Shown here: positions 4,579 through 62,051 of the stretch, piece after piece
Numbering within the stretch: position 1 is the stretch's first letter
How the letters are laid out: each line of letters begins with the position of its first letter
Origin: Escherichia phage DK-13
Sequence record: MT611523.1
DNA length: 64,000 bases
Strand: one strand, 5' to 3'
The notes under the pieces: model-generated
Told to the model about the DNA's origin: nothing
Database searches by the model: none
The model's input: only the letters and a program-made list of their open reading frames with translations
Made by a program: the position numbers and the translations under genes

Positions 4579-4608
4579 ATCTTAACGTGTCTTATTGCTC
4601 TTGTACAC
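4579..4608 (-). promoter_or_regulatory. sigma70-type early promoter with class-A leader
   Basis: -35 TGTACA (4603-4608), -10 TAAGAT-like at 4579-4585, conserved CCTATCAACTACTGATGAGGA leader. Confidence 0.45.
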
Positions 4609-5152
4609 AGTCAAGAACATAATAATCACCAACAAATCCAGCATCAACTATCACGAATTTCTGGTCAACTGGAACAAACCATTCAAGCTCAGAATCAATC
4701 ATGTCCATGTATTCTTCACGTCTTAACGTTGCCGCCTGTTCGGAACCAGAAGCTGTATTGAAGAATTCCAGTGGAACATCAAGCGCGAGCTTACGCATTA
4801 CATCATGGTAACAAAAAGCTTTTGTCTGATTCAATCTGACGATAGTCCTTGTCACATATTCCATTGCAGCAAAATCCCTGGCAATACCATAGTCTTCTGT
4901 AAAGGAGGTTATCCTTCCAAATTCAAAAGGTTGCATTGATTCTTTTGCTTCATCTAACAAATCAATCTCTTGCTGGGTCACCCCACGATACAAGACTGTA
5001 TCAGGTATAGACAACCTTGACTTGATGATTGAGTTAACGTTTGAATGCAAGGTCTTATCAACCTTTGATGTGCGGCATTCAAATAATGAAGCTATCTCCA
5101 TTTCACTAAATTTTAACTGGTTGGGTTCGGTATCAGATTTGATGATGTTCAT
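4592..5152 (-). CDS. modB: ADP-ribosyltransferase, ModB-like
   Basis: 186 aa; paralogous to the ModA-like ORF (LYRGV ... TSFTEDYGIARDFA). Confidence 0.55.
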   Translation of the reverse strand: MNIIKSDTEPNQLKFSEMEIASLFECRTSKVDKTLHSNVNSIIKSRLSIPDTVLYRGVTQQEIDLLDEAKESMQPFEFGRITSFTEDYGIARDFAAMEYVTRTIVRLNQTKAFCYHDVMRKLALDVPLEFFNTASGSEQAATLRREEYMDMIDSELEWFVPVDQKFVIVDAGFVGDYYVLDCVQEQ

Positions 5153-5208
5153 AATGGCCTCTCTGTTGTAAGAAAGACCATTATGTCATTAGGAGGGGAG
5201 TAAGTAAA

Positions 5209-7055: not shown

Positions 7056-7289
7056 TTAAACTACTGGGGTAGGCGTAAACATCGCCGCGTTCTTAGTTCG
7101 CCAATCAGCTGCACTAGACGCTACGGTGACATAAGCGGCCTTTTCGGAAGGAAAAGTCTGATAGTGTGCATTAGCAATACGGTGCTCGTTCGAATAGATT
7201 TCAAACGGAACAGATACTTCAACACCTTTAACTTCAACACCTTCACCAGCTGGATGCGTAAAGGTTTTGATATTAACGAAACCACCCAT
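7056..7289 (-). CDS. soc: small outer capsid protein Soc
   Basis: 77 aa; GxVNIKTF ... AHYQTFPSEKAAY matches T4 Soc; canonical late promoter upstream. Confidence 0.85.
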   Translation of the reverse strand: MGGFVNIKTFTHPAGEGVEVKGVEVSVPFEIYSNEHRIANAHYQTFPSEKAAYVTVASSAADWRTKNAAMFTPTPVV

Positions 7290-7320
7290 AATTAACTCCT
7301 TTGTTGTTTAATTACAGGTG

Positions 7321-7328
7321 TATTTATA
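7321..7328 (-). promoter_or_regulatory. T4-type late promoter TATAAATA (soc)
   Basis: exact TATAAATA on minus strand about 30 nt upstream of soc ATG. Confidence 0.55.
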
Positions 7329-7566: not shown

Positions 7567-8407
7567 TTTCGAACCTCTTTACCATGTTTATATAATTTTC
7601 GTCTGGATAACCTAAACTAACTGCTAACTTTCTAAAATTCACATATTTAGGTTTGTTATTACTAAGCCATAAATCTCTAAGCTCAATTTCATAATTCCAT
7701 TTAAGCTGGTTTCCTCTAGCAGTTTTGCTCAAAGTTTTTCCTTTATCTTTTAGAGCTTTTTCCGAAGACTGTTTTAATTTTTGGAGATTTAAAACTTCCT
7801 CAACAGATAAATTATTTTCTTCTGCATAGCGCGCACAAAAATCTTTTACTGTAGCTATTAGACAGTTTTTGTGGGTACCTAAAACTTCCGGATTATTTTC
7901 TTCAACCAAAACTCCCCAGTATCTTCGATAGCGAGGCATATCCCGCGAAATCCAGTCATTATACCAGAAATCAAAATTAGAATACATAAAGGATTTTCTT
8001 TTACGGAGAATGTCTTGCTCTATCCACTCCCCGCGTTTATCGGCCCATAACTTAATAGTAAGGTCTTTCTCTAAATCAGAAAGCTTCTTAAACTGGGCAC
8101 TATTTGTTAGTGTCATTCTCTGGAATGCATTAAGCAAACCCAACACCCGAGTTGAGCACAAAAGATAATGAACATATATGTGTTGGTATATAGGAAGATA
8201 CACCCTATTCCAAGGAGAGATTTTAAAATCGCTGTATTCTGGAAATGCACACTTCGGAAGTATATGATGAGCTTCCGTTTTAGATTTGGTATGGACGTTT
8301 AGTTTATACTTATCTATAATTTTTAAGTAATCATCTAAAAGTTCCCATTGCGGGAACTTTTCTTTAAGAACGGATTTGAAATTAATATCCATTGTCCTGA
8401 CGTTCAA
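7559..8407 (-). CDS. HNH homing endonuclease (Mob-like), freestanding
   Basis: TEAHHILPK HNH core motif; sits at the gene 56/soc junction where T4 carries segF; 5' end overlaps gene 56 so exact start is uncertain. Confidence 0.75.
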   Translation of the reverse strand: MNVRTMDINFKSVLKEKFPQWELLDDYLKIIDKYKLNVHTKSKTEAHHILPKCAFPEYSDFKISPWNRVYLPIYQHIYVHYLLCSTRVLGLLNAFQRMTLTNSAQFKKLSDLEKDLTIKLWADKRGEWIEQDILRKRKSFMYSNFDFWYNDWISRDMPRYRRYWGVLVEENNPEVLGTHKNCLIATVKDFCARYAEENNLSVEEVLNLQKLKQSSEKALKDKGKTLSKTARGNQLKWNYEIELRDLWLSNNKPKYVNFRKLAVSLGYPDENYINMVKRFENE

Positions 8408-8897
8408 AGTTGTGTTTATTTTTCAAATAATAAAGTTTAAACATTTCTTCGGCTGACATATTAAGACCAATAGCCATATTGAATACAAAGTGCATAATGT
8501 CAATTAATTCAAATTTAATTTCGAGTTGGTCTTCAGGAGACATTTCTGAAATAGGTTTAGCTTGTGCTTCCAGATAACGAGCTTTCCATTTTTTCCAGAC
8601 ACCTGAAGCATCTTTTTCACCTTTAGACATTTCACCGAGAGAAGTCAAAAGTTCACGGAATTCATCATCAATACAGTCTTTCTGTTCGCGCATCCAGGCA
8701 ACTACATCGCCTGCAGTGGCCAGTTTATCCGGATGGTAGCAATAATCACGGTCATTAGCCAGACGAACCTGCAATGATTTCTGCATATCAAGCATAACTT
8801 GCAGTGGGTCAGTGCCTTCAAAAATTGCATTATCATAAGCGCCTTGAGCTTTATCAACACCAGCAATCAGTTGAGAACACTCGTTAAAATGAGCCAT
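8382..8897 (-). CDS. 56: dCTP pyrophosphatase (MazG-like) gp56
   Basis: near-collinear match to T4 gp56 from MAHFNEC onward; ORF-track start 8915 extends 6 codons upstream. Confidence 0.9.
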   Translation of the reverse strand: MAHFNECSQLIAGVDKAQGAYDNAIFEGTDPLQVMLDMQKSLQVRLANDRDYCYHPDKLATAGDVVAWMREQKDCIDDEFRELLTSLGEMSKGEKDASGVWKKWKARYLEAQAKPISEMSPEDQLEIKFELIDIMHFVFNMAIGLNMSAEEMFKLYYLKNKHNFERQDNGY

Positions 8898-8957
8898 TAT
8901 ATTTTTCCTTATCAATTCATGTTGTTTGTATGTTAATTATATCGTATTGGTTTAAAG

Positions 8958-8965
8958 CATAAATA
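8958..8965 (+). promoter_or_regulatory. late-promoter-like CATAAATA
   Basis: CATAAATA 16 nt upstream of plus-strand ATG 8982; one mismatch from TATAAATA. Confidence 0.3.
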
Positions 8966-8981
8966 CACGGAAGGAGGATAT

Positions 8982-9179
8982 ATGCTCAAACTATCTAGTC
9001 TAATTCAAGCCATCAAAGGCAGTCGTAAGCGAACGATTCTGGTCCTTTCGATACTCTGTTTAGTTCTACTCTGGAACTTCGTTGTTGCCCCTATTGCATT
9101 GGCACATGGTGTTATATTGCCAGTCGTCGCGCTCGAATCAGTTGTAGATGTTTCACTGGCATTAATCGGCCTTATATAG
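8982..9179 (+). CDS. small hydrophobic protein (65 aa), plus strand
   Basis: strong SD GGAAGGAGGA 7 nt before ATG; two predicted TM segments; opposite orientation to the surrounding array. Confidence 0.5.
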   Translation: MLKLSSLIQAIKGSRKRTILVLSILCLVLLWNFVVAPIALAHGVILPVVALESVVDVSLALIGLI

Positions 9180-9221: not shown

Positions 9222-9362
9222 CCAGTAAGAAAAGCCCATGATGTTTCTCTGTGGAACTTACTGGTTGTGCCTATCGCTGCAACACAAGGGGTGCACTTAC
9301 CTCAGGTCACAACGGAACATATCCATTCCATCATCGGTTACTTTACCGGAATCCCTTCCTAA
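9222..9362 (+). pseudogene. start-less, rearranged partial copy of the 8982-9179 gene
   Basis: translation ...LWNLLVVPIAATQGVHLPQV aligns with ...LWNFVVAPIALAHGVILPVV of the upstream gene; no start codon; preceded by a copy of that gene's 3' end. Confidence 0.35.
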
Positions 9363-10108
9363 ACTTTTGCGTACTTCCAAAAATGGCCGTTTGACCTATA
9401 CATTCGGCCTGTCTTTTTATTTCTTTTACAAGCTGTGTATATATTTTGAGTATTGCCCGCCAATTGTAATAATTCCTTTGCCTCAGCTCCCGAATTATAC
9501 TTTTCAAGTATATTACCAAATTCATCGCATCTACAAACCGGTGTTCCAGTTGCCTTTCGGCATGCTTCTCGGCGCAACTTTTTCGTTTCTTCGGTTTGCG
9601 GATTTTCTTTAAATCGTCTCATTTGTGCATCGCGATTCTTTTGCCGTTGTTCATCAGTAATTGGATTATTTTGATAATACAATTTTAATGAGTTGGCTAT
9701 TTTGCTTTTGGTTTTATCAGACGCAGGGTGGTCGTTATGTCGCTTGTGTAAAGCAATTAACATTTTGTCTTTAAACTCGGATTGACTCCATAAGTTTGAC
9801 ATATGTTCACTAACGGCTTTACTATGTTCTTTTCGCATCCATTCATATTTTGCGCTATCAAATTTGTCACCACACATCCGGTGTATAGCAAACATTAATT
9901 TAGAAAGTCGATAAATTTTAAAAAGTAACAAATGCGCAATAAAATGTTCTCTTGCTGATAACAATACCAAATTATCTTCGGTGTCAGGCCCACCCAAACA
10001 CCTTGGTAGTATATGATGGGACTCCGTATAAAATGGGATATTCTTTTTGTTTAGGCCCCTTGCGAGGCCTTTGTCTATTAATTTATTATATAATTTTAGA
10101 TAATTCAT
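9359..10108 (-). CDS. HNH homing endonuclease (Mob-like), freestanding
   Basis: ESHHILPRCLGG ... N ... H HNH motif; ATG overlaps gene 61 stop (ATGA). Confidence 0.8.
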   Translation of the reverse strand: MNYLKLYNKLIDKGLARGLNKKNIPFYTESHHILPRCLGGPDTEDNLVLLSAREHFIAHLLLFKIYRLSKLMFAIHRMCGDKFDSAKYEWMRKEHSKAVSEHMSNLWSQSEFKDKMLIALHKRHNDHPASDKTKSKIANSLKLYYQNNPITDEQRQKNRDAQMRRFKENPQTEETKKLRREACRKATGTPVCRCDEFGNILEKYNSGAEAKELLQLAGNTQNIYTACKRNKKTGRMYRSNGHFWKYAKV

Positions 10109-22821: not shown

Positions 22822-23517
22822 TTAATCTTGGAATTCGTGGCTAGAACCTTGTTCCATTGCAATCACATAGCTTGCTTGTGTACCTTCAAACTTCGTAGCA
22901 AATTTATCGTCTTTCGCCCAAAGCATAACACGGTAATCAGCCGGAATCATTTTCATGTTCAGTTTGTTAATGATAAATTTAAACGCTGCATCACCTTCGT
23001 AATCGCCACACACCAGGGAATACAATGGACGCGCTAACTCTTTATCTTCGAGCTGATTATAACCATGGATAACAATCTTACCGTCTTTGTTGGTGATTGC
23101 AAAAGTATCCAGTGACAAACCACCAGCCACACGCAGAAGTTGCTGCAGGTCACTACCTTTCAGGTCGAAGATAACCTTAGCTACCGGGAAAGGAATCTTC
23201 TTAGCAGGGAACACGATAGTGCTCGGGTCAGCCGCTGGCCAGTGAATCGTTGAACGTTGGTCTTTGATAATGATATTCGATGCATCTTCAGCCAGAGATA
23301 CTTCGGCTTGGTCAGTTACCAGGCCCAGGATACTTAAGAAGCCGTTCAGGTCATAAATTGCAGCTTCAAAGTCGATTGTATCATTGATTTCAGATTCACC
23401 ATATGACGCTCCAGTCACAGAACGAGTCAGGATGGTATTACCTGGCTTAAGCATAATGCCAGAGTAAATGGAAGTGAAGTTTTTCAGAACTGCGATAGTG
23501 TCTTTAGAGAATTTCAT
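22822..23517 (-). CDS. 45: sliding clamp gp45
   Basis: 231 aa; collinear with T4 gp45 (MKFSKDT...PADYRVMLWAKD). Confidence 0.9.
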   Translation of the reverse strand: MKFSKDTIAVLKNFTSIYSGIMLKPGNTILTRSVTGASYGESEINDTIDFEAAIYDLNGFLSILGLVTDQAEVSLAEDASNIIIKDQRSTIHWPAADPSTIVFPAKKIPFPVAKVIFDLKGSDLQQLLRVAGGLSLDTFAITNKDGKIVIHGYNQLEDKELARPLYSLVCGDYEGDAAFKFIINKLNMKMIPADYRVMLWAKDDKFATKFEGTQASYVIAMEQGSSHEFQD

Positions 23518-23979: not shown

Positions 23980-24198
23980 TTAATCAAAGTATTCATATGC
24001 AAACCAGGCATTGTGTCTGTTCGCGATTATTTTAACATATTCTTCACCGAAAGCGTTTTGTAAGTCACGTTCAGTAACAAGGTGTTCATCTTTCGAAAAG
24101 GTATTAACTAACACATATCGTTTAATTTCAGGGACAGCCAGTAAATGCTGCCCGGTTAAAAAATTGCTCATAAATAATATTATCCGTTGCAGTATCAA
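23980..24198 (-). CDS. hypothetical protein (72 aa)
   Basis: co-oriented ORF. Confidence 0.35.
   Translation of the reverse strand: MILQRIILFMSNFLTGQHLLAVPEIKRYVLVNTFSKDEHLVTERDLQNAFGEEYVKIIANRHNAWFAYEYFD
24169..24176 (+). promoter_or_regulatory. late-promoter-like CATAAATA
   Basis: CATAAATA 35 nt upstream of plus-strand HNH ATG. Confidence 0.3.
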
Positions 24199-24211: not shown

Positions 24212-24928
24212 ATGAATTATAACATCATTTACCAAAAGCTTATTAGCAGAGCATTGAATCGCAAATTAACCACATACTCTGAAAGTCATCACATTATACC
24301 CCGTTGCATGGGTGGGGCAGACGACGCTTCAAATCTTGTTGATTTAACTCCCGAGGAACATTTCGTTTGTCATCAACTGTTGGTCAAAATGCATCCAAAT
24401 AATGCTTCTTTGGTCTATGCCGCGCGCATGATGACAGTTTCCTCACCAAACGCCGACAGAAGCAAAAACAAATTATTTGGATGGCTTCGTCGTAAAAACT
24501 TGGAAGCTCAACAAAATAAAATTTTCTCCGATGAAACCAGAAAGAAAATGTCAGAATCCGCCAAATTAAAACCGAGAGTTGAATGTCCACACTGTGGAAA
24601 AACCGGTCTCGTTGGCAATATGAATCGTTGGCATTTTGATAACTGTTCCAAAGGTCCAAACAAGGTTGTTCATACTATTCCAGAAAAACAAAAGCAAAAA
24701 ATTTCAGTAGGATTAAAACAAGCTAAACATGAAATTTTAACTTGTGAATTTTGTGGTCTTGAAGGTAAAAAGTGTGTTATATCCACTCACCAACAATTCT
24801 GCAAATCCAATCCAAACCGGAAGAAAAAGGTGGACCCCAAAATTCAGTGTCCACATTGTAATGTAGTCGGTACGCCAGCCAATATGAAACGTTGGCATTT
24901 TGATAACTGCAAAATGAAGCCTCAATAA
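24212..24928 (+). CDS. HNH homing endonuclease with C-terminal zinc-finger repeats, plus strand
   Basis: SESHHIIPRCMGG...N...H HNH core; three CxxC-x(n)-W/HxFDNC repeats; ATG 24212 chosen (ORF track starts at 24011). Confidence 0.75.
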   Translation: MNYNIIYQKLISRALNRKLTTYSESHHIIPRCMGGADDASNLVDLTPEEHFVCHQLLVKMHPNNASLVYAARMMTVSSPNADRSKNKLFGWLRRKNLEAQQNKIFSDETRKKMSESAKLKPRVECPHCGKTGLVGNMNRWHFDNCSKGPNKVVHTIPEKQKQKISVGLKQAKHEILTCEFCGLEGKKCVISTHQQFCKSNPNRKKKVDPKIQCPHCNVVGTPANMKRWHFDNCKMKPQ

Positions 24929-29011: not shown

Positions 29012-29281
29012 TTAATCCTTGGGAGTTAACTCAATTGTAAAATATAGATTAGCATTATCCACATGATAACGGTAATCAACGTTATTGTCCGGAGAAGTAA
29101 ATTCCAGATTCCGGACGTTTAAAGGGTCGATATCAATTGGAAGACCTTTTATGTCTCGCAGATAAAGTTTAATGAAATATGGGAGAGCCGTAAAGTCTTC
29201 CTCGATTTTATCTAAAAAATCGGTAATATCAAATTGATGTTCCATATAAAAAATCCAAATCACCCTCTTTATCTTTGGCAC
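29012..29281 (-). CDS. hypothetical protein (89 aa)
   Basis: co-oriented ORF; 5' end overlaps gene 55 so true start is probably internal. Confidence 0.35.
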
Positions 29282-29786
29282 TCTTATCAGACCCTGGCGC
29301 TTTAACTAAGGAGGATTCGTACTGTGTCATTTTGTCATAGATGTCCTGGATAAATGTTTCATCAGCCAGAGCCACCATATCGTCATCACGTGAATCATAT
29401 ACGTTATGGACGAAGTAGCTATATTTCTTTGCCATTTCTTTACGTTCTTTTTTGATACGCTGAACGAAAGCATTGAAGCAAGCCATTGTTATGTAAGCAT
29501 GTGGATTATCGTATTTTGTTTCGTCGAAGTTGTGAAGACCTTTTATTGCGGCCTCAATACCGTCAGCAATCATTTCTTGCTTCCAGGATTGGGTATATCC
29601 GGAGAAGTTGAAACGTTTGCTAAGACCTTCGGCTATAAGCATAATCGCCAGACCAATAACATCGTTCTGGCGAATAATTTTGTTCGGGTCGGTGTTCGCA
29701 TTCAGCTTCTGTTTCCACTCCGAAATAGCTTTCAAAAGCTCTTTATTATTTACATAGTTATTCTTGGTTAATTTAATTTCGTTCAT
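29229..29786 (-). CDS. 55: late sigma factor gp55
   Basis: 185 aa; NYVNNKELL...[18 protein letters not shown] collinear with T4 gp55. Confidence 0.92.
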
Positions 29787-35224: not shown

Positions 35225-35694
35225 TTTAAACTCTTTCTAAGCTGCTTCTTAAATGAAGCCATTAATTGTGTTTTTGTGTCAGATTCATTATAAGTCATAC
35301 CGTTCAAAAGCATTTCCCGAATCATTTCTTCTTTCCCCAGACGACCGAACTCTTTGGCTTTGTCTGTTACAAAATTGGGGTGAATATTGTTTTCGGTATA
35401 ATCAGATTTCAGATAGACAAGCAAACTCTCCAACCATTCCAGGTAGTCAACATTGCGACCTTTCAGACCCGAACGGCTGAACTTATGCTTCATTTGCCCT
35501 TCTGTTCCATTGCACAGATTGCATAGTAACCCGCGAACCTTACCAGCTTTTGGCCCGTTCAATTCGTGGTCATGGTCAAGATGGTTGGCCTGAACATCGG
35601 AGTCCAAATCACGGTGGCAAATTGGACACTTACCAGCTTGTGCATCATAAAGTTTTTGTTTTTCTTCTTTGTATAATTTGCCAGTCAACAACAT
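35221..35694 (-). CDS. 49: endonuclease VII (Holliday junction resolvase) gp49
   Basis: 157 aa; HLDHDHELNGPKAGKVRGLLCNLCN block nearly identical to T4 gp49. Confidence 0.93.
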   Translation of the reverse strand: MLLTGKLYKEEKQKLYDAQAGKCPICHRDLDSDVQANHLDHDHELNGPKAGKVRGLLCNLCNGTEGQMKHKFSRSGLKGRNVDYLEWLESLLVYLKSDYTENNIHPNFVTDKAKEFGRLGKEEMIREMLLNGMTYNESDTKTQLMASFKKQLRKSLK

Positions 35695-35732
35695 AATAAA
35701 CCCTTACCATTATTAGATAAGGGTATTTATTA
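35695..35732 (-). promoter_or_regulatory. gene 49 leader: SD-sequestering hairpin plus late-promoter-like AATAAATA
   Basis: minus strand AATAAATA-ACCCTTATC...GGTAAGGGT-TTATT-ATG; the stem closes just before the start codon. Confidence 0.45.
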
Positions 35733-35915
35733 TTTTTCAAATGTGCTATAGAACGAACGATGCAACCGTTTAAATTGACGAATCATCTTTTTGGTAGGAC
35801 GAGTATACAATCCCACACAGGTGGCCATAAACTGGTCAGTAGGACTTCCTTTAATAAGAAGTTTCCAGACCTTGTCACCGTTTAACTTTTCGGTATAGAC
35901 TAATTTAGTTTTCAT
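35730..35915 (-). CDS. small basic protein, PTKRQIR paralogue 3 (61 aa)
   Basis: TRPTKKMIRQFKRLHR motif shared with ORFs 11519-11740 and 12887-13126. Confidence 0.45.
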   Translation of the reverse strand: MKTKLVYTEKLNGDKVWKLLIKGSPTDQFMATCVGLYTRPTKKMIRQFKRLHRSFYSTFEK

Positions 35916-36214
35916 ACAGCCTCAAATTCATTATCATCGTTAGTCCAAAAACACCAGAATGCAGATTTGGTGCCTTCATACATTTCTTTGGTGTATTCAT
36001 ATACCTTACCATTGAACTCAATAGCAGTCACACCAATGATTTCAGGATTGCCCCAGGGAGAAATCTCCACCTTCAAGATTTTAACTTTTGCACCTTCACA
36101 GAGCTTACCAGATTCAAAACCGCGATTTCCGTTTAATTCAGGCCAGTCAACATAATGGTCAACGGTTTCTTCAGTAATACGAACAGTTTTACCTTCAAAT
36201 TCAAATAAATTCAT
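35912..36214 (-). CDS. hypothetical protein (100 aa)
   Basis: co-oriented ORF. Confidence 0.4.
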   Translation of the reverse strand: MNLFEFEGKTVRITEETVDHYVDWPELNGNRGFESGKLCEGAKVKILKVEISPWGNPEIIGVTAIEFNGKVYEYTKEMYEGTKSAFWCFWTNDDNEFEAV

Positions 36215-36503
36215 CAGAATGCCTCATCAGAAAAGCGGAGTTGAGCTTCAAGCCAATGAATGTAGTCAGCTGCAGCAAAAATTAAAGCAGATTCTTCATC
36301 GGGTAACTTATGAGAATCTGACAATTCGTAAAGTGAATGCTCAATCAGACGGCCTTTGTGACGGCCAACTTCAATTTTGGTACTCATATCCAAACTCCAT
36401 ATCGATTAACTCATTGTTTGAAGGTTCATTATAATCTATTTCGGAATCGTTGTAAACAGGTTCCTCTGGCTCGACAGTTTCAAATCTACATACAAACCAA
36501 GGT

Positions 36504-37274
36504 TTATTCATTATTCTTTTTCCTAGCATCAGAAGCAGCTTTTCTTCTAGTTCTAGTCCTTTCTAAATCAGCAGCAATCAAATTAGCTATATTAGTAACC
36601 GGATTACCAAATTCATCATAAGTAATATATTTCCAAGCATATCCAAATGTATGATTTCTCTCATTAAGCAGGCACCTTTTAATAGCGCTGCCTGCTTTAT
36701 AAATTGAAAGAAATTTAGCTGCATCTGGTAAATAATCAAAAGTTTCTACCAATTCACCTGAACTTAAATCAAATGCACCAAAAAGCTCAATAGTGTATTT
36801 ACTCCTATCAAGACTGGCTTTAGCTTCATGCTTTAAGTGGTTTATTTCTTTTAGAATTTTAAGGTCTAATTGTCCTGGTATTTTATCTATCTGTACACCC
36901 ATTCTAGATAAAGCATACCCCATTTTATAGTTTCCTGATTTGGCCAACCAATAGTGAGCCATAATATGGCTTTCTATACTTAGATTTACAAGATTCCATT
37001 TAGACGTTTTAAATTCAGGAAATAAGGATTTAGGTAATATATGGTGAGACTCGGTTTTACCTTTTATTAAAGGCCCGGAAGACTCTATTAAAGAGAAATA
37101 GTTTTCAGCAAATTGCCAATAAGGCAATTTGCTTTTAAGAAGTTCTTTAATTTCGTCTAAGGTTTTAGTAGGCTTAACGGTCACTCCAATAGCTTGATAC
37201 TTCAAAATCAGGCTCGCCGTCGTCCCAGTACCAGGGACCCACCGGATGCCAATCGCCATGCTTATCTTCTTCAT
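36504..37274 (-). CDS. HNH homing endonuclease (Mob-like), freestanding
   Basis: TESHHILPK...N...H HNH core; 5' 100 nt overlap the upstream ORF, so the true start (possibly GTG near 37184) is uncertain. Confidence 0.7.
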   Translation of the reverse strand: MKKISMAIGIRWVPGTGTTASLILKYQAIGVTVKPTKTLDEIKELLKSKLPYWQFAENYFSLIESSGPLIKGKTESHHILPKSLFPEFKTSKWNLVNLSIESHIMAHYWLAKSGNYKMGYALSRMGVQIDKIPGQLDLKILKEINHLKHEAKASLDRSKYTIELFGAFDLSSGELVETFDYLPDAAKFLSIYKAGSAIKRCLLNERNHTFGYAWKYITYDEFGNPVTNIANLIAADLERTRTRRKAASDARKKNNE

Positions 37275-47441: not shown

Positions 47442-47825
47442 TTACTCTAGTGTTAACAGATACTTAGTCTGAAAGAAAACTCCAACGATATCGTCCAGAG
47501 TCGATTGAATAGCCTTGGGTACAACTTTATAGACTCTTTCCGAGCTTTTAATCATTTCATCTAAAAACAAAATTGTATCTTTCGGCAAGTCCGAGGCGGA
47601 CGGTAATGCAGCTTTGTATTGTTTCCCGCTGTAACCTAACCATTGCTCACTGAACTGGTCGAGTGGACCTTGGATTTCTGTGAAGTAGAAATCATAAGCT
47701 TTATGGCGGGCGTAACTTTTGGTTTCAAGATGGGCGGACTTAAAATAAGCCAAAGAGACTAACAACCACCCAATATATGAATCCACCTCAGACCCACGAC
47801 CCGTTACGAAATCATCAAATTTCAT
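47442..47825 (-). CDS. hypothetical protein (127 aa)
   Basis: co-oriented ORF. Confidence 0.4.
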   Translation of the reverse strand: MKFDDFVTGRGSEVDSYIGWLLVSLAYFKSAHLETKSYARHKAYDFYFTEIQGPLDQFSEQWLGYSGKQYKAALPSASDLPKDTILFLDEMIKSSERVYKVVPKAIQSTLDDIVGVFFQTKYLLTLE

Positions 47826-48108
47826 CTTCCAATTTTACCTTCATTAATTTAGCGTACTCTCTCGCCGCAGCTTTACCATCGCTTTTGCAGGTAATTTCAG
47901 TTTCGCATTGGCTTTTGTTGTTCCATTCAGTCTTGATAAACGCCCAGAACTGTTCGGATTGGTGCACGCTTGGTTCTTTGAATTGCGAATAAATCTTCAT
48001 CGCACTATCTGCATATTGGGTAAACTTCCCATCTGTTGCAGAGGACAGATTTGGACCTAAACAGCCCAGGATTATTAGACTTAATGAAAGTCCTCGAATA
48101 AGGTCCAT
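47815..48108 (-). CDS. rI: lysis-inhibition regulator rI-like
   Basis: 97 aa; N-terminal signal anchor; SEQFWAF and KLE motifs; adjacent to tk as in T4. Confidence 0.5.
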   Translation of the reverse strand: MDLIRGLSLSLIILGCLGPNLSSATDGKFTQYADSAMKIYSQFKEPSVHQSEQFWAFIKTEWNNKSQCETEITCKSDGKAAAREYAKLMKVKLEDEI

Positions 48109-48180
48109 AAGGACTCCTATTGTTGGTCATGATTACGCTTTGCAGCCTTAACATAGCGGAATACTAGTTAGTAACTGTAT

Positions 48181-48456
48181 TTATAATCTTTTAAAATTAA
48201 AGCAGTACTCTGAAAATAAACTTGCAAAATTACGTTCGACCCAGACCCGTTGTTTTGGGCTGGTAATCGTTGACAAATAGTACGCTTGTTGCAGGCTTAT
48301 TCCGTTTTTATTCGGGCACTCTTTGTTGAACGAGTGATAGGTACTTGCAACGATTTCGACTTCGCGCTCATACCTTTCCTGGTCCTGTTGCATAGGAACA
48401 AAAACCAAAACCAGGAATATCAAAATAGAGATATACGTCCAAACCTTGTATACCAT
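48181..48456 (-). CDS. membrane-anchored protein (91 aa)
   Basis: co-oriented ORF with N-terminal TM helix. Confidence 0.4.
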   Translation of the reverse strand: MVYKVWTYISILIFLVLVFVPMQQDQERYEREVEIVASTYHSFNKECPNKNGISLQQAYYLSTITSPKQRVWVERNFASLFSEYCFNFKRL

Positions 48457-54363: not shown

Positions 54364-54855
54364 TTATTTGTATGCGTCAAAAGTTCCGGTGCGGAAAGTT
54401 TCAATAACTCGTTTAGCCCGGTTCGGAGTCTGGACTTTATACCATCTTGAGTCTGCCAGTTCCTTGGCAGCCGCTTCCCATGATTTAGCCTTCAGCAATC
54501 GCATACCCTTAGGAAAACCAGCAACACCAGCAACACCCATCTGGAATACCATATTAATGAGTGCACAACGACGAACTTCATCAAGTACATCATAAACAGG
54601 TTTTAAGACAGGATGCCTCAAGATTCCGGCTTTAGCTTTTTCGACCGAACGGTTAAACAATGTTTCAGCTTCGTGCTGGGTTATGCGACCATTACAGACG
54701 CGACCCATGAGCTTATCGAGCTCAGCACGAGCAACATCTTTTGATGGGTTCTTAGTTATCAGTTGCCCAATACCAATGGTCCAAAAACCTTCGGTATCTT
54801 TATACAAATCTAACTTACAACCTTCATCTATGCGTAACATTTCGAATATATTCAT
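54364..54855 (-). CDS. e: lysozyme (T4 e-type endolysin)
   Basis: 163 aa; [12 protein letters not shown]...YKDTEG...TIGIG with E11/D20/T26 catalytic residues; collinear with T4 lysozyme. Confidence 0.95.
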
Positions 54856-54883
54856 AATACCCCCTTATATAGGGGTATTTATT
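54856..54883 (-). promoter_or_regulatory. gene e leader: SD-sequestering hairpin plus late-promoter-like AATAAATA
   Basis: minus strand AATAAATA-CCCCTATATAAGGGGGTATT-ATG; 8-bp inverted repeat AATACCCC/GGGGTATT flanks the SD. Confidence 0.5.
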
Positions 54884-55343
54884 ATCCGAAAATTTGAGTC
54901 ATTACCTTGTACATCGATTTGCCCATCACATACTGCCATTGACTCGGTTTAATCAGAGCAAATGCATCGAACTCTGGAACCGAACTACCATCCGGGAAGG
55001 TATGATAGGCAGAGCATTTACTATGTCTGAACTGCTCATGCTCGACCGGAACCGTGTACAGAAACAGGTGAAGATTTTTGTTATCTGAATAACGGAATTC
55101 ACCCAGGTCCTTTAAGAATGCTGGGTCATATTGGGTAAACCCGGTTTCTTCTTCGGTTTCACGGATAGCAGCTTCAATCGGGGATTCACCAGCTTCAACA
55201 TGACCCTTAGGGATGTCCCATTTGTGTGCAGGCATACCTGGTTTACGAGAACCAGTCACACGACCCATGAATAACTCTTTATCTTCAGTCATGAAAATAA
55301 TACCAGCAGATAATTCTTTCACCTTGTTTTTCTTACTCATCAT
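54882..55343 (-). CDS. nudE: Nudix hydrolase NudE
   Basis: Nudix box GHVEAGESPIEAAIRETEEETGF; internal Met chosen (ORF track begins 42 codons upstream); adjacent to e as in T4. Confidence 0.8.
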   Translation of the reverse strand: MMSKKNKVKELSAGIIFMTEDKELFMGRVTGSRKPGMPAHKWDIPKGHVEAGESPIEAAIRETEEETGFTQYDPAFLKDLGEFRYSDNKNLHLFLYTVPVEHEQFRHSKCSAYHTFPDGSSVPEFDAFALIKPSQWQYVMGKSMYKVMTQIFG

Positions 55344-62022: not shown

Positions 62023-62051
62023 ATTATACACTATCCCACCTGGAAGTAAAA
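62023..62051 (-). promoter_or_regulatory. early promoter with class-B leader
   Basis: -35 TTTTAC (62046-62051), 17-nt spacer, -10 TATAAT (62023-62028). Confidence 0.45.

Follow-up and report, generated by a model that had tools for sequence, protein, structure and literature searches.

In bacteriophage T4, the genes e, soc, 49, and I-TevI carry inhibitory helices at their translation initiation regions (Uzan and Miller, PMC3014915). Long early transcripts of e form such a structure, and lysozyme synthesis is lowered about 100-fold (PMC3014915); e transcripts begun at two late promoters, which are missing the 5′ portion, are translated well (McPheeters et al. 1986, via PMC3014915). In closely related phages of the T4 type the e leaders are similar, and in each leader a late promoter codes for the structure's 5′ strand (PMC3014915). 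At T4 gene 49, a late promoter is likewise combined with a hairpin, and the hairpin limits how far early transcripts are translated into the full-length protein (Barth et al. 1988, via PMC2988022, PMC3014915), and the same arrangement has been described for I-TevI, I-TevII, I-TevIII, segB, and mobE of phage Aeh1 (Edgell et al., PMC2988022). The late-promoter octamer of T4 spans positions −13 to −6, with little conservation of the T at −13 among T4-like phages (Nolan et al., PMC1524935).

Escherichia phage DK-13 (MT611523.1) was analyzed over a stretch of 64,000 nucleotides, referred to here as the window. The window region shares 93–98% identity with SP18/VR7-type phages of Escherichia, Shigella, and Yersinia (genus Gaprivervirus, Tevenvirinae). 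The elements in front of DK-13 genes e and 49 are very probably orthologues of the T4 switches in which a late promoter sits inside an inhibitory hairpin. The initial annotation had proposed the known T4 mechanism for these two genes, and positional orthology, conservation, covariation in the gene 49 stem, the predicted placement of +1, and the presence of genes for gp55 and gp45 all argue in favor of that proposal. By analogy with T4 and from the published literature, it is presumed that the promoters are active, that +1 lies where predicted, that early read-through RNA exists, and that translation is affected. The features of the e locus are as follows.

54876–54883, minus strand: late-promoter octamer AATAAATA of gene e, with A at −13; orthologous by position to TATAAATA, the upstream late promoter of T4 e
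54856–54879, minus strand: e leader RNA hairpin of 9 bp, with 5′ arm AAUACCCCU (54879–54871), loop AUAUAA (54870–54865), and 3′ arm GGGGGUAUU (54864–54856)
54870, minus strand: predicted late +1 for e, an A and the first loop base, placed by the −13 to −6 rule for the octamer (PMC1524935)
54364–54855, minus strand: gene e, T4-type lysozyme of 163 aa (Pfam Phage_lysozyme; 67% identity to T4 e)
54882–55340, minus strand: nudE, Nudix hydrolase, 5′ end approximate (Pfam NUDIX; tblastn with T4 NudE, 54888–55325; SP18 annotation)

On the minus strand the e locus reads ...TTCGGATAATAAATACCCCTATATAAGGGGGTATTATGAATATATTC..., in which the last four bases of the octamer double as the first four of the hairpin 5′ arm and the nudE stop codon TAA (54884–54882) overlaps the octamer. 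The 3′ arm holds the Shine-Dalgarno sequence and adjoins the AUG (ATG at 54855–54853), and the minimal hairpin element folds at −13.1 kcal/mol. The 8-bp inverted repeat that the initial annotation had noted before e (AATACCCC/GGGGTATT) is present as described, and a closing U-G pair extends it to 9 bp. Since the predicted +1 is the first base of the loop, the late RNA would lack the entire 5′ arm. The nudE gene is co-oriented with e and lies directly upstream, and would thereby offer an entry route for read-through transcripts.

The DK-13 e element resembles that of T4 in its position after nudE, in an outer stem (AAUAC.../...GUAUU) that adjoins the AUG, in the octamer 3′ half that opens the 5′ arm, and in the placement of the Shine-Dalgarno sequence in the 3′ arm. 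The T4 leader, TATAAATAccttcTATAAATActtaggaggtattATG, features two exact octamers, the second of which is in the loop. DK-13, in contrast, has a single late promoter octamer at e in the window, and in place of the T4 loop promoter TATAAATA it has a short loop within CTATATAAG, of 6 nt instead of the 8 nt in T4. The DK-13 octamer also has A at −13 where T4 has T. The stem core is CCCC/GGGG in DK-13 and CCUUC/GGAGG in T4 e, a difference of one compensatory and one wobble-to-Watson-Crick change, and this removes the GGAG motif from the Shine-Dalgarno sequence, which in DK-13 is GGGGG. RegB, which is also encoded in the window, cleaves the GGAG motif. A similar leader is that of T4 I-TevI (AATAAATActtctatatttaaagaggtatttATG), which has A at −13 and a stem much like the DK-13 e stem. 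In T4, eight tRNA genes along with RNAs C and D are carried in the region just upstream of the e cluster; in the 64 kb of DK-13, no tRNA was detected at the Rfam gathering score.

Gene 49 was said in the initial annotation to share the layout of e, and it does; the coordinates and description given there for both sites are correct. The features of this locus are listed below.

35724–35731, minus strand: late-promoter octamer AATAAATA of gene 49, with the same sequence as in T4 gene 49
35693–35733, minus strand: gene 49 leader RNA hairpin, with upper stem ACCCUUAUC/GGUAAGGGU (35724–35716 with 35708–35700) and loop UAAUAAU
35718, minus strand: predicted late +1 for gene 49, an A, placed by the same −13 to −6 rule (PMC1524935)
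35221–35694, minus strand: gene 49, recombination endonuclease VII of 157 aa (Pfam Endonuclease_7 and Endonuc-dimeris; 84% identity to T4 gp49)

The minus strand here reads ...GAAAAATAATAAATACCCTTATCTAATAATGGTAAGGGTTTATTATGTTG..., and the octamer overlaps the stop codon TAA (35732–35730) of an upstream 61-aa ORF. Below the upper stem, a lower A-U stem (35733–35727 with 35699–35693) takes in the A and U of the AUG (35694–35692). With the predicted +1 at 35718, the late RNA would keep just 3 bases of the 5′ arm. Compared with the T4 gene 49 leader (AATAAATAcccttatctatttaaggtaagggtttattATG), the octamer, the whole stem ACCCUUAUC/GGUAAGGGU, and UUUAUUAUG are identical, and within the hairpin only the loop differs (UAAUAAU in DK-13, UAUUUAA in T4). 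The downstream gene order 49-nrdD is common to both phages, but the upstream gene differs. In DK-13 it is the 61-aa DUF7279 ORF (35730–35915, minus strand), the C-terminus of which resembles that of Pin, and T4 has the 161-aa pin at this place. A separate 59-aa ORF (36214–36393, minus strand) matches Pin residues 102–145 at 41% identity, and from these sequence matches pin appears to be fragmented or rearranged in DK-13.

The course of events that these elements would support is that described for T4. Genes e and 49 would lie within minus-strand runs of early genes, so that transcripts from distant upstream promoters would read through nudE or the 61-aa ORF. In the long early RNA, the C-rich stretch past the octamer would pair with the Shine-Dalgarno sequence, and at gene 49 an A-U stem on the AUG would be added. 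A ribosome-binding site sealed in this way would not admit the 30S subunit, and neither lysozyme nor the Holliday-junction resolvase would be made early. After the onset of replication, RNA polymerase carrying gp55 would read AATAAATA at −13 to −6 and start 6 nt downstream, at 54870 and 35718; the resulting late RNAs would be without the 5′ arm, leaving the ribosome-binding site open for translation. The genes around e and 49 are indeed all co-oriented, and an early-type promoter (GTTTACA-17-TATAAT) is found at 36456 on the same strand, about 760 nt upstream of gene 49. For e, a stringent search revealed no convincing early promoter within about 7 kb upstream, the best candidate being TTTTACT-16-TATAAT at 62051. 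As in general gp55-dependent T4 late promoters, the DK-13 sites consist of an 8-bp box of the TATAAATA type with no −35 element. The protein for reading them is encoded in the window:

29244–29786, minus strand: gene 55, late sigma factor for reading the octamers (tblastn with T4 gp55; 80% identity over residues 1–181)

The gp45 sliding-clamp activator is encoded as well, at 22831–23517 (tblastn; 60% identity to T4). Gene 33 presumably lies outside the window, judging by T4 gene order.

Predicted folding agrees with such a switch. The e and gene 49 regions fold at −17.8 and −16.7 kcal/mol, respectively, with z = −3.2 each against dinucleotide shuffles. The two sites also have a 13-mer in common, ATAATAAATACCC, for which 0.12 matches are expected. 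The opening energy, here the free energy needed to unpair the 16 nt that run from the Shine-Dalgarno sequence to the end of the AUG, was ranked over the 57 minus-strand ORF starts with a Shine-Dalgarno-like motif (mean 5.7 kcal/mol, sd 3.4). In this ranking the ribosome-binding site of gene 49 is the second most buried (16.7 kcal/mol) and that of e the third (14.8 kcal/mol). These values are for an early-type leader, modeled with 120 nt of upstream sequence; when the leader instead starts at the predicted +1, as in the late-type model, the predicted cost falls to 2.7 kcal/mol for e and 3.1 kcal/mol for gene 49. A search of the whole 64 kb with Rfam covariance models gave no match at the gathering score, with chance-level scores only (E at least 0.2, far short of the gathering score) near the two hairpins; the e and 49 leaders are without an Rfam family.

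The octamers themselves might be explained without any promoter function. Both overlap the upstream stop codon within the shared 13-mer, so they could be by-products of upstream TAATAA stop signals, with late expression of e and 49 driven from distant promoters and the hairpin opened by ribosomes that terminate on the upstream ORF (translational coupling). At both sites, position −13 is also off consensus, and the octamer gives way to C-rich instead of AT-rich sequence. However, AATAAATA is depleted elsewhere in the window: 8.6 occurrences are expected over the two strands of the 64 kb and 3 are present, and both minus-strand copies are the e and gene 49 sites. In addition, the identical octamer of T4 gene 49 and the AATAAATA that precedes I-TevI are listed late promoters (PMC2988020, PMC2988022).

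Comparison with relatives bears further on this explanation. From IMG/VR, 65 loci with e relatives and 46 loci with gp49 relatives were sampled. The motif NATAAATA is directly fused to a hairpin in 33/33 T4-like e loci, and it is kept in place even where the upstream sequence and gene wholly differ (for example in L016, L026, and L036), which means that one particular stop-codon context does not explain it. At the gene 49 loci, NATAAATA is present in 41/46 and ATTAAATA in 1; in the remaining 4, from large Aeh1-type genomes, the motif switches to CTAAATA, the late consensus of the Aeh1 group itself (PMC1524935). Such a switch is expected only if gp55 reads the motif. An origin of the octamers as mere stop-codon by-products is thus very unlikely, and they are better read as late promoters. 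A more limited part for the stop codons is conceivable, since both sit at the feet of the hairpins: terminating ribosomes could transiently melt the structures and permit some coupled translation.

The hairpins are retained as consistently as the motif. All of the recovered T4-like e and 49 loci feature a motif-fused hairpin of 7–16 pairs, the fold being kept in 18/18 distinct e leaders, and more distant lysozyme homologues outside the T4 group (L037–L068) have neither octamer nor hairpin. Across the homologues, the hairpin ends between 6 nt before the start codon and 5 nt inside the ORF, and a late RNA starting 6 nt past the octamer would retain 0–6 bases of the 5′ arm in every one of them. 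This geometry is relevant to the view that the hairpins act mainly as intrinsic terminators or 3′-end stabilizers of the upstream early units (nudE and the 61-aa ORF), shielding e and 49 from early transcription. At gene 49, the hairpin and the TTATTATGTT behind it do pass simple terminator criteria on the minus strand, and both hairpins begin a few bases from the stop codons upstream. The e hairpin, though, has no U-run on the sense strand and is not called a terminator there, and in relatives the sequence after the stem is often not U-rich (e.g., GGTGAACTTATGCTT). What stays constant is instead the 3′ arm over the Shine-Dalgarno sequence or AUG, and a terminator has no need of such a placement. 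Moreover, early transcripts running into e are on record for T4 (PMC3014915). A mainly terminating or stabilizing role is therefore unlikely, although a partial dual role, as terminator and switch, is possible for the gene 49 hairpin.

The gene 49 stem was also examined for covariation. In a MAFFT alignment of 29 distinct leaders, 91.3% of the cells of the 8-pair stem are paired, as against 69.6% in column shuffles (0/500 as high) and 39–49% when the partner strand is slid, and changes on both sides occur in 6/8 pairs (56 cells). The gene 49 stem is therefore strongly conserved through compensatory change. The same analysis of the e stem detected no covariation (88.9% paired vs. 88.3% in shuffles, 248/500 as high), and the sole double change in the stem core is that of the window type, U-A to C-G. 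The e stem is too constrained to be informative here: its 3′ arm is the conserved Shine-Dalgarno sequence, and the alignment mixes two stem registers.

The alignments also indicate the strand and molecule on which selection acts. An inverted repeat can serve as DNA, through a cruciform or as an operator for a protein, and I-TevI does bind an operator that overlaps its own late promoter (PMC2988022). It can also act on the antisense strand, as a plus-strand terminator whose T-run comes from the octamer complement. On the plus strand at 54861–54885, the complement of the e hairpin, CCCCTTATATAGGGG, followed by the octamer complement TATTTATTAT, scores as terminator-like, which is probably incidental. 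Against both possibilities, the mRNA-sense strand folds more stably than its complement in 28/29 gene 49 leaders and 12/18 e leaders. One pair of the gene 49 stem is U-G in 23/29 sequences, and in a cruciform or on the opposite strand it would turn into a C-A mismatch. This asymmetry and the U-G pair indicate that selection acts on the RNA rather than on a DNA cruciform or antisense transcript, and no gene or promoter is found nearby on the plus strand. A DNA-level or antisense function is accordingly hardly credible.

The octamer variant deserves separate comment. The initial annotation had pointed out that e and 49 carry AATAAATA instead of TATAAATA; the sequence is as stated and matches 7/8 of the TATAAATA box at both sites, but it is no peculiarity of DK-13. 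The T4 gene 49 octamer is identical, so AATAAATA is already the T4 state for this gene. Of the T4 late promoters listed, 50 in all, 32 match the consensus perfectly, and the commonest variant is A at −13, with nine; variant promoters are active in vitro, with several tied to RNA 5′ ends in vivo (Geiduschek and Kassavetis, PMC2988020). In a scan of the T4 genome, AATAAATA preceded not only gene 49 and I-TevI but inh and gene 15 as well. The idea that A at −13 marks hairpin-coupled promoters was rejected, as T4 e and soc use T and inh and gene 15 have AATAAATA without the layout.

T4 late promoters are usually AT-rich just downstream of the box (PMC2988020). In DK-13, the segment from −5 to −1 is C-rich instead (CCCCT at e, CCCTT at gene 49), because it doubles as the anti-Shine-Dalgarno arm. 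An AT-rich segment is similarly absent from the accepted promoters of T4 e and gene 49, and AT-richness at this position is a statistical tendency, not a requirement. The C-rich segment and A at −13 together suggest that the promoters are weak. The base at −13 is T in 4/18 distinct e leaders and 5/29 gene 49 leaders, as compared to 13/14 for soc, where the sample is phylogenetically narrower. A more speculative and rather doubtful reading is that the hairpin-coupled late promoters of low-abundance, potentially harmful enzymes such as e and 49 form a deliberately weak subclass, in which −13 can vary freely and the melted region is C-rich of necessity. Dose and timing would then be determined together by the −13 base, the composition of the arm, and the stop codon overlapping from upstream, in place of a simple on/off state. 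The features above lend weak support to such tuned, low-output promoters.

Exact copies of TATAAATA had been placed by the initial annotation at soc and at two genes with N-termini resembling capsid-targeting sequences, and a scan of the window confirmed these, with four sites in total, all on the minus strand (7328, before soc; 11357; 48185; and 63697). Although that annotation had set soc apart, a hairpin over the start codon follows the soc octamer directly here too:

7277–7328, minus strand: soc (Pfam Soc), third instance of the layout, with TATAAATA at 7328–7321, then one base, then the hairpin ACCUGUAAUUAA/UUAAUUAUGGGU over the AUG (7289)

Unlike that of e, the soc hairpin is A-U rich and lies over the AUG instead of the Shine-Dalgarno sequence. 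Its opening energy is 10.6 kcal/mol in the early-type leader vs. 3.0 kcal/mol in the late-type leader, and the promoter-plus-hairpin layout is kept in 17 related loci.

Several other features of the window were observed alongside. The most buried ribosome-binding site is that of ORF 4592–5152 (5138–5200, minus strand), with an opening energy of 18.8 kcal/mol and a fold of −22.7 kcal/mol (z −4.7). This ORF is a ModB-like ADP-ribosyltransferase gene, 33% identical to T4 ModB. Its hairpin, CAUAAUGGUCUUUCU/AGAGAGGCCAUUAUG, covers the Shine-Dalgarno sequence and AUG, and an early-type promoter (GTTTAC-18-CATAAT) has its −10 box in overlap with the 5′ arm. The layout recurs at T4 modB, where the stem has a different but compensating sequence (AUAUGAUAGCUUC/GGAGGCUAUCAUG) and the promoter is GTTTAC-18-TATGAT. 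From its sequence, the ModB-like leader looks like a mirror image of the e/49 switch, one that would be translatable only from the proximal early promoter; its recovered relatives are only 3 and near-identical.

The fourth exact TATAAATA (48178–48185, minus strand) is 77 nt upstream of the rI antiholin ORF (47815–48108, minus strand; Pfam Antiholin, E 2e-30). The rI Shine-Dalgarno sequence, AGGAGUCCU, has a potential pairing partner, AGGACU, shortly after the start of the ORF, and its opening energy of 10.2 kcal/mol is the fourth highest. On the plus strand (8958–9179), CATAAATA, GGAGG, and an ATG (8982) precede a 65-aa hydrophobic ORF with no Pfam match, which lies a little past the start of the minus-strand ORF 8382–8915. 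Its opening energy is 11.5 kcal/mol with a long leader vs. 3.4 kcal/mol from the predicted late start, and it may be the gene of a small late membrane protein. Motifs of HNH-type homing endonucleases (ESHHI[IL]P...) occur in three ORFs (9359–10108, minus strand; 24212–24928, plus strand; and 36504–37274, minus strand). The plus-strand member of this group has CATAAATA upstream (24169–24176) and no hairpin at its ribosome-binding site (opening energy 5.6 vs. 6.0 kcal/mol).

Taken as a whole, the observation at DK-13 e and 49 is real yet ordinary, the layout being that of a textbook T4 device in a related phage. The classic T4 silencing of lysozyme and Holliday-junction resolvase until late infection would thus be intact in another T4-like genus, and the gene 49 hairpin gains clean covariation support across dozens of phages. 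The layout should be of use in annotating late promoters and start codons in T4-like genomes. Where it is present, the abundance of early e or 49 transcripts would be no predictor of the corresponding protein.
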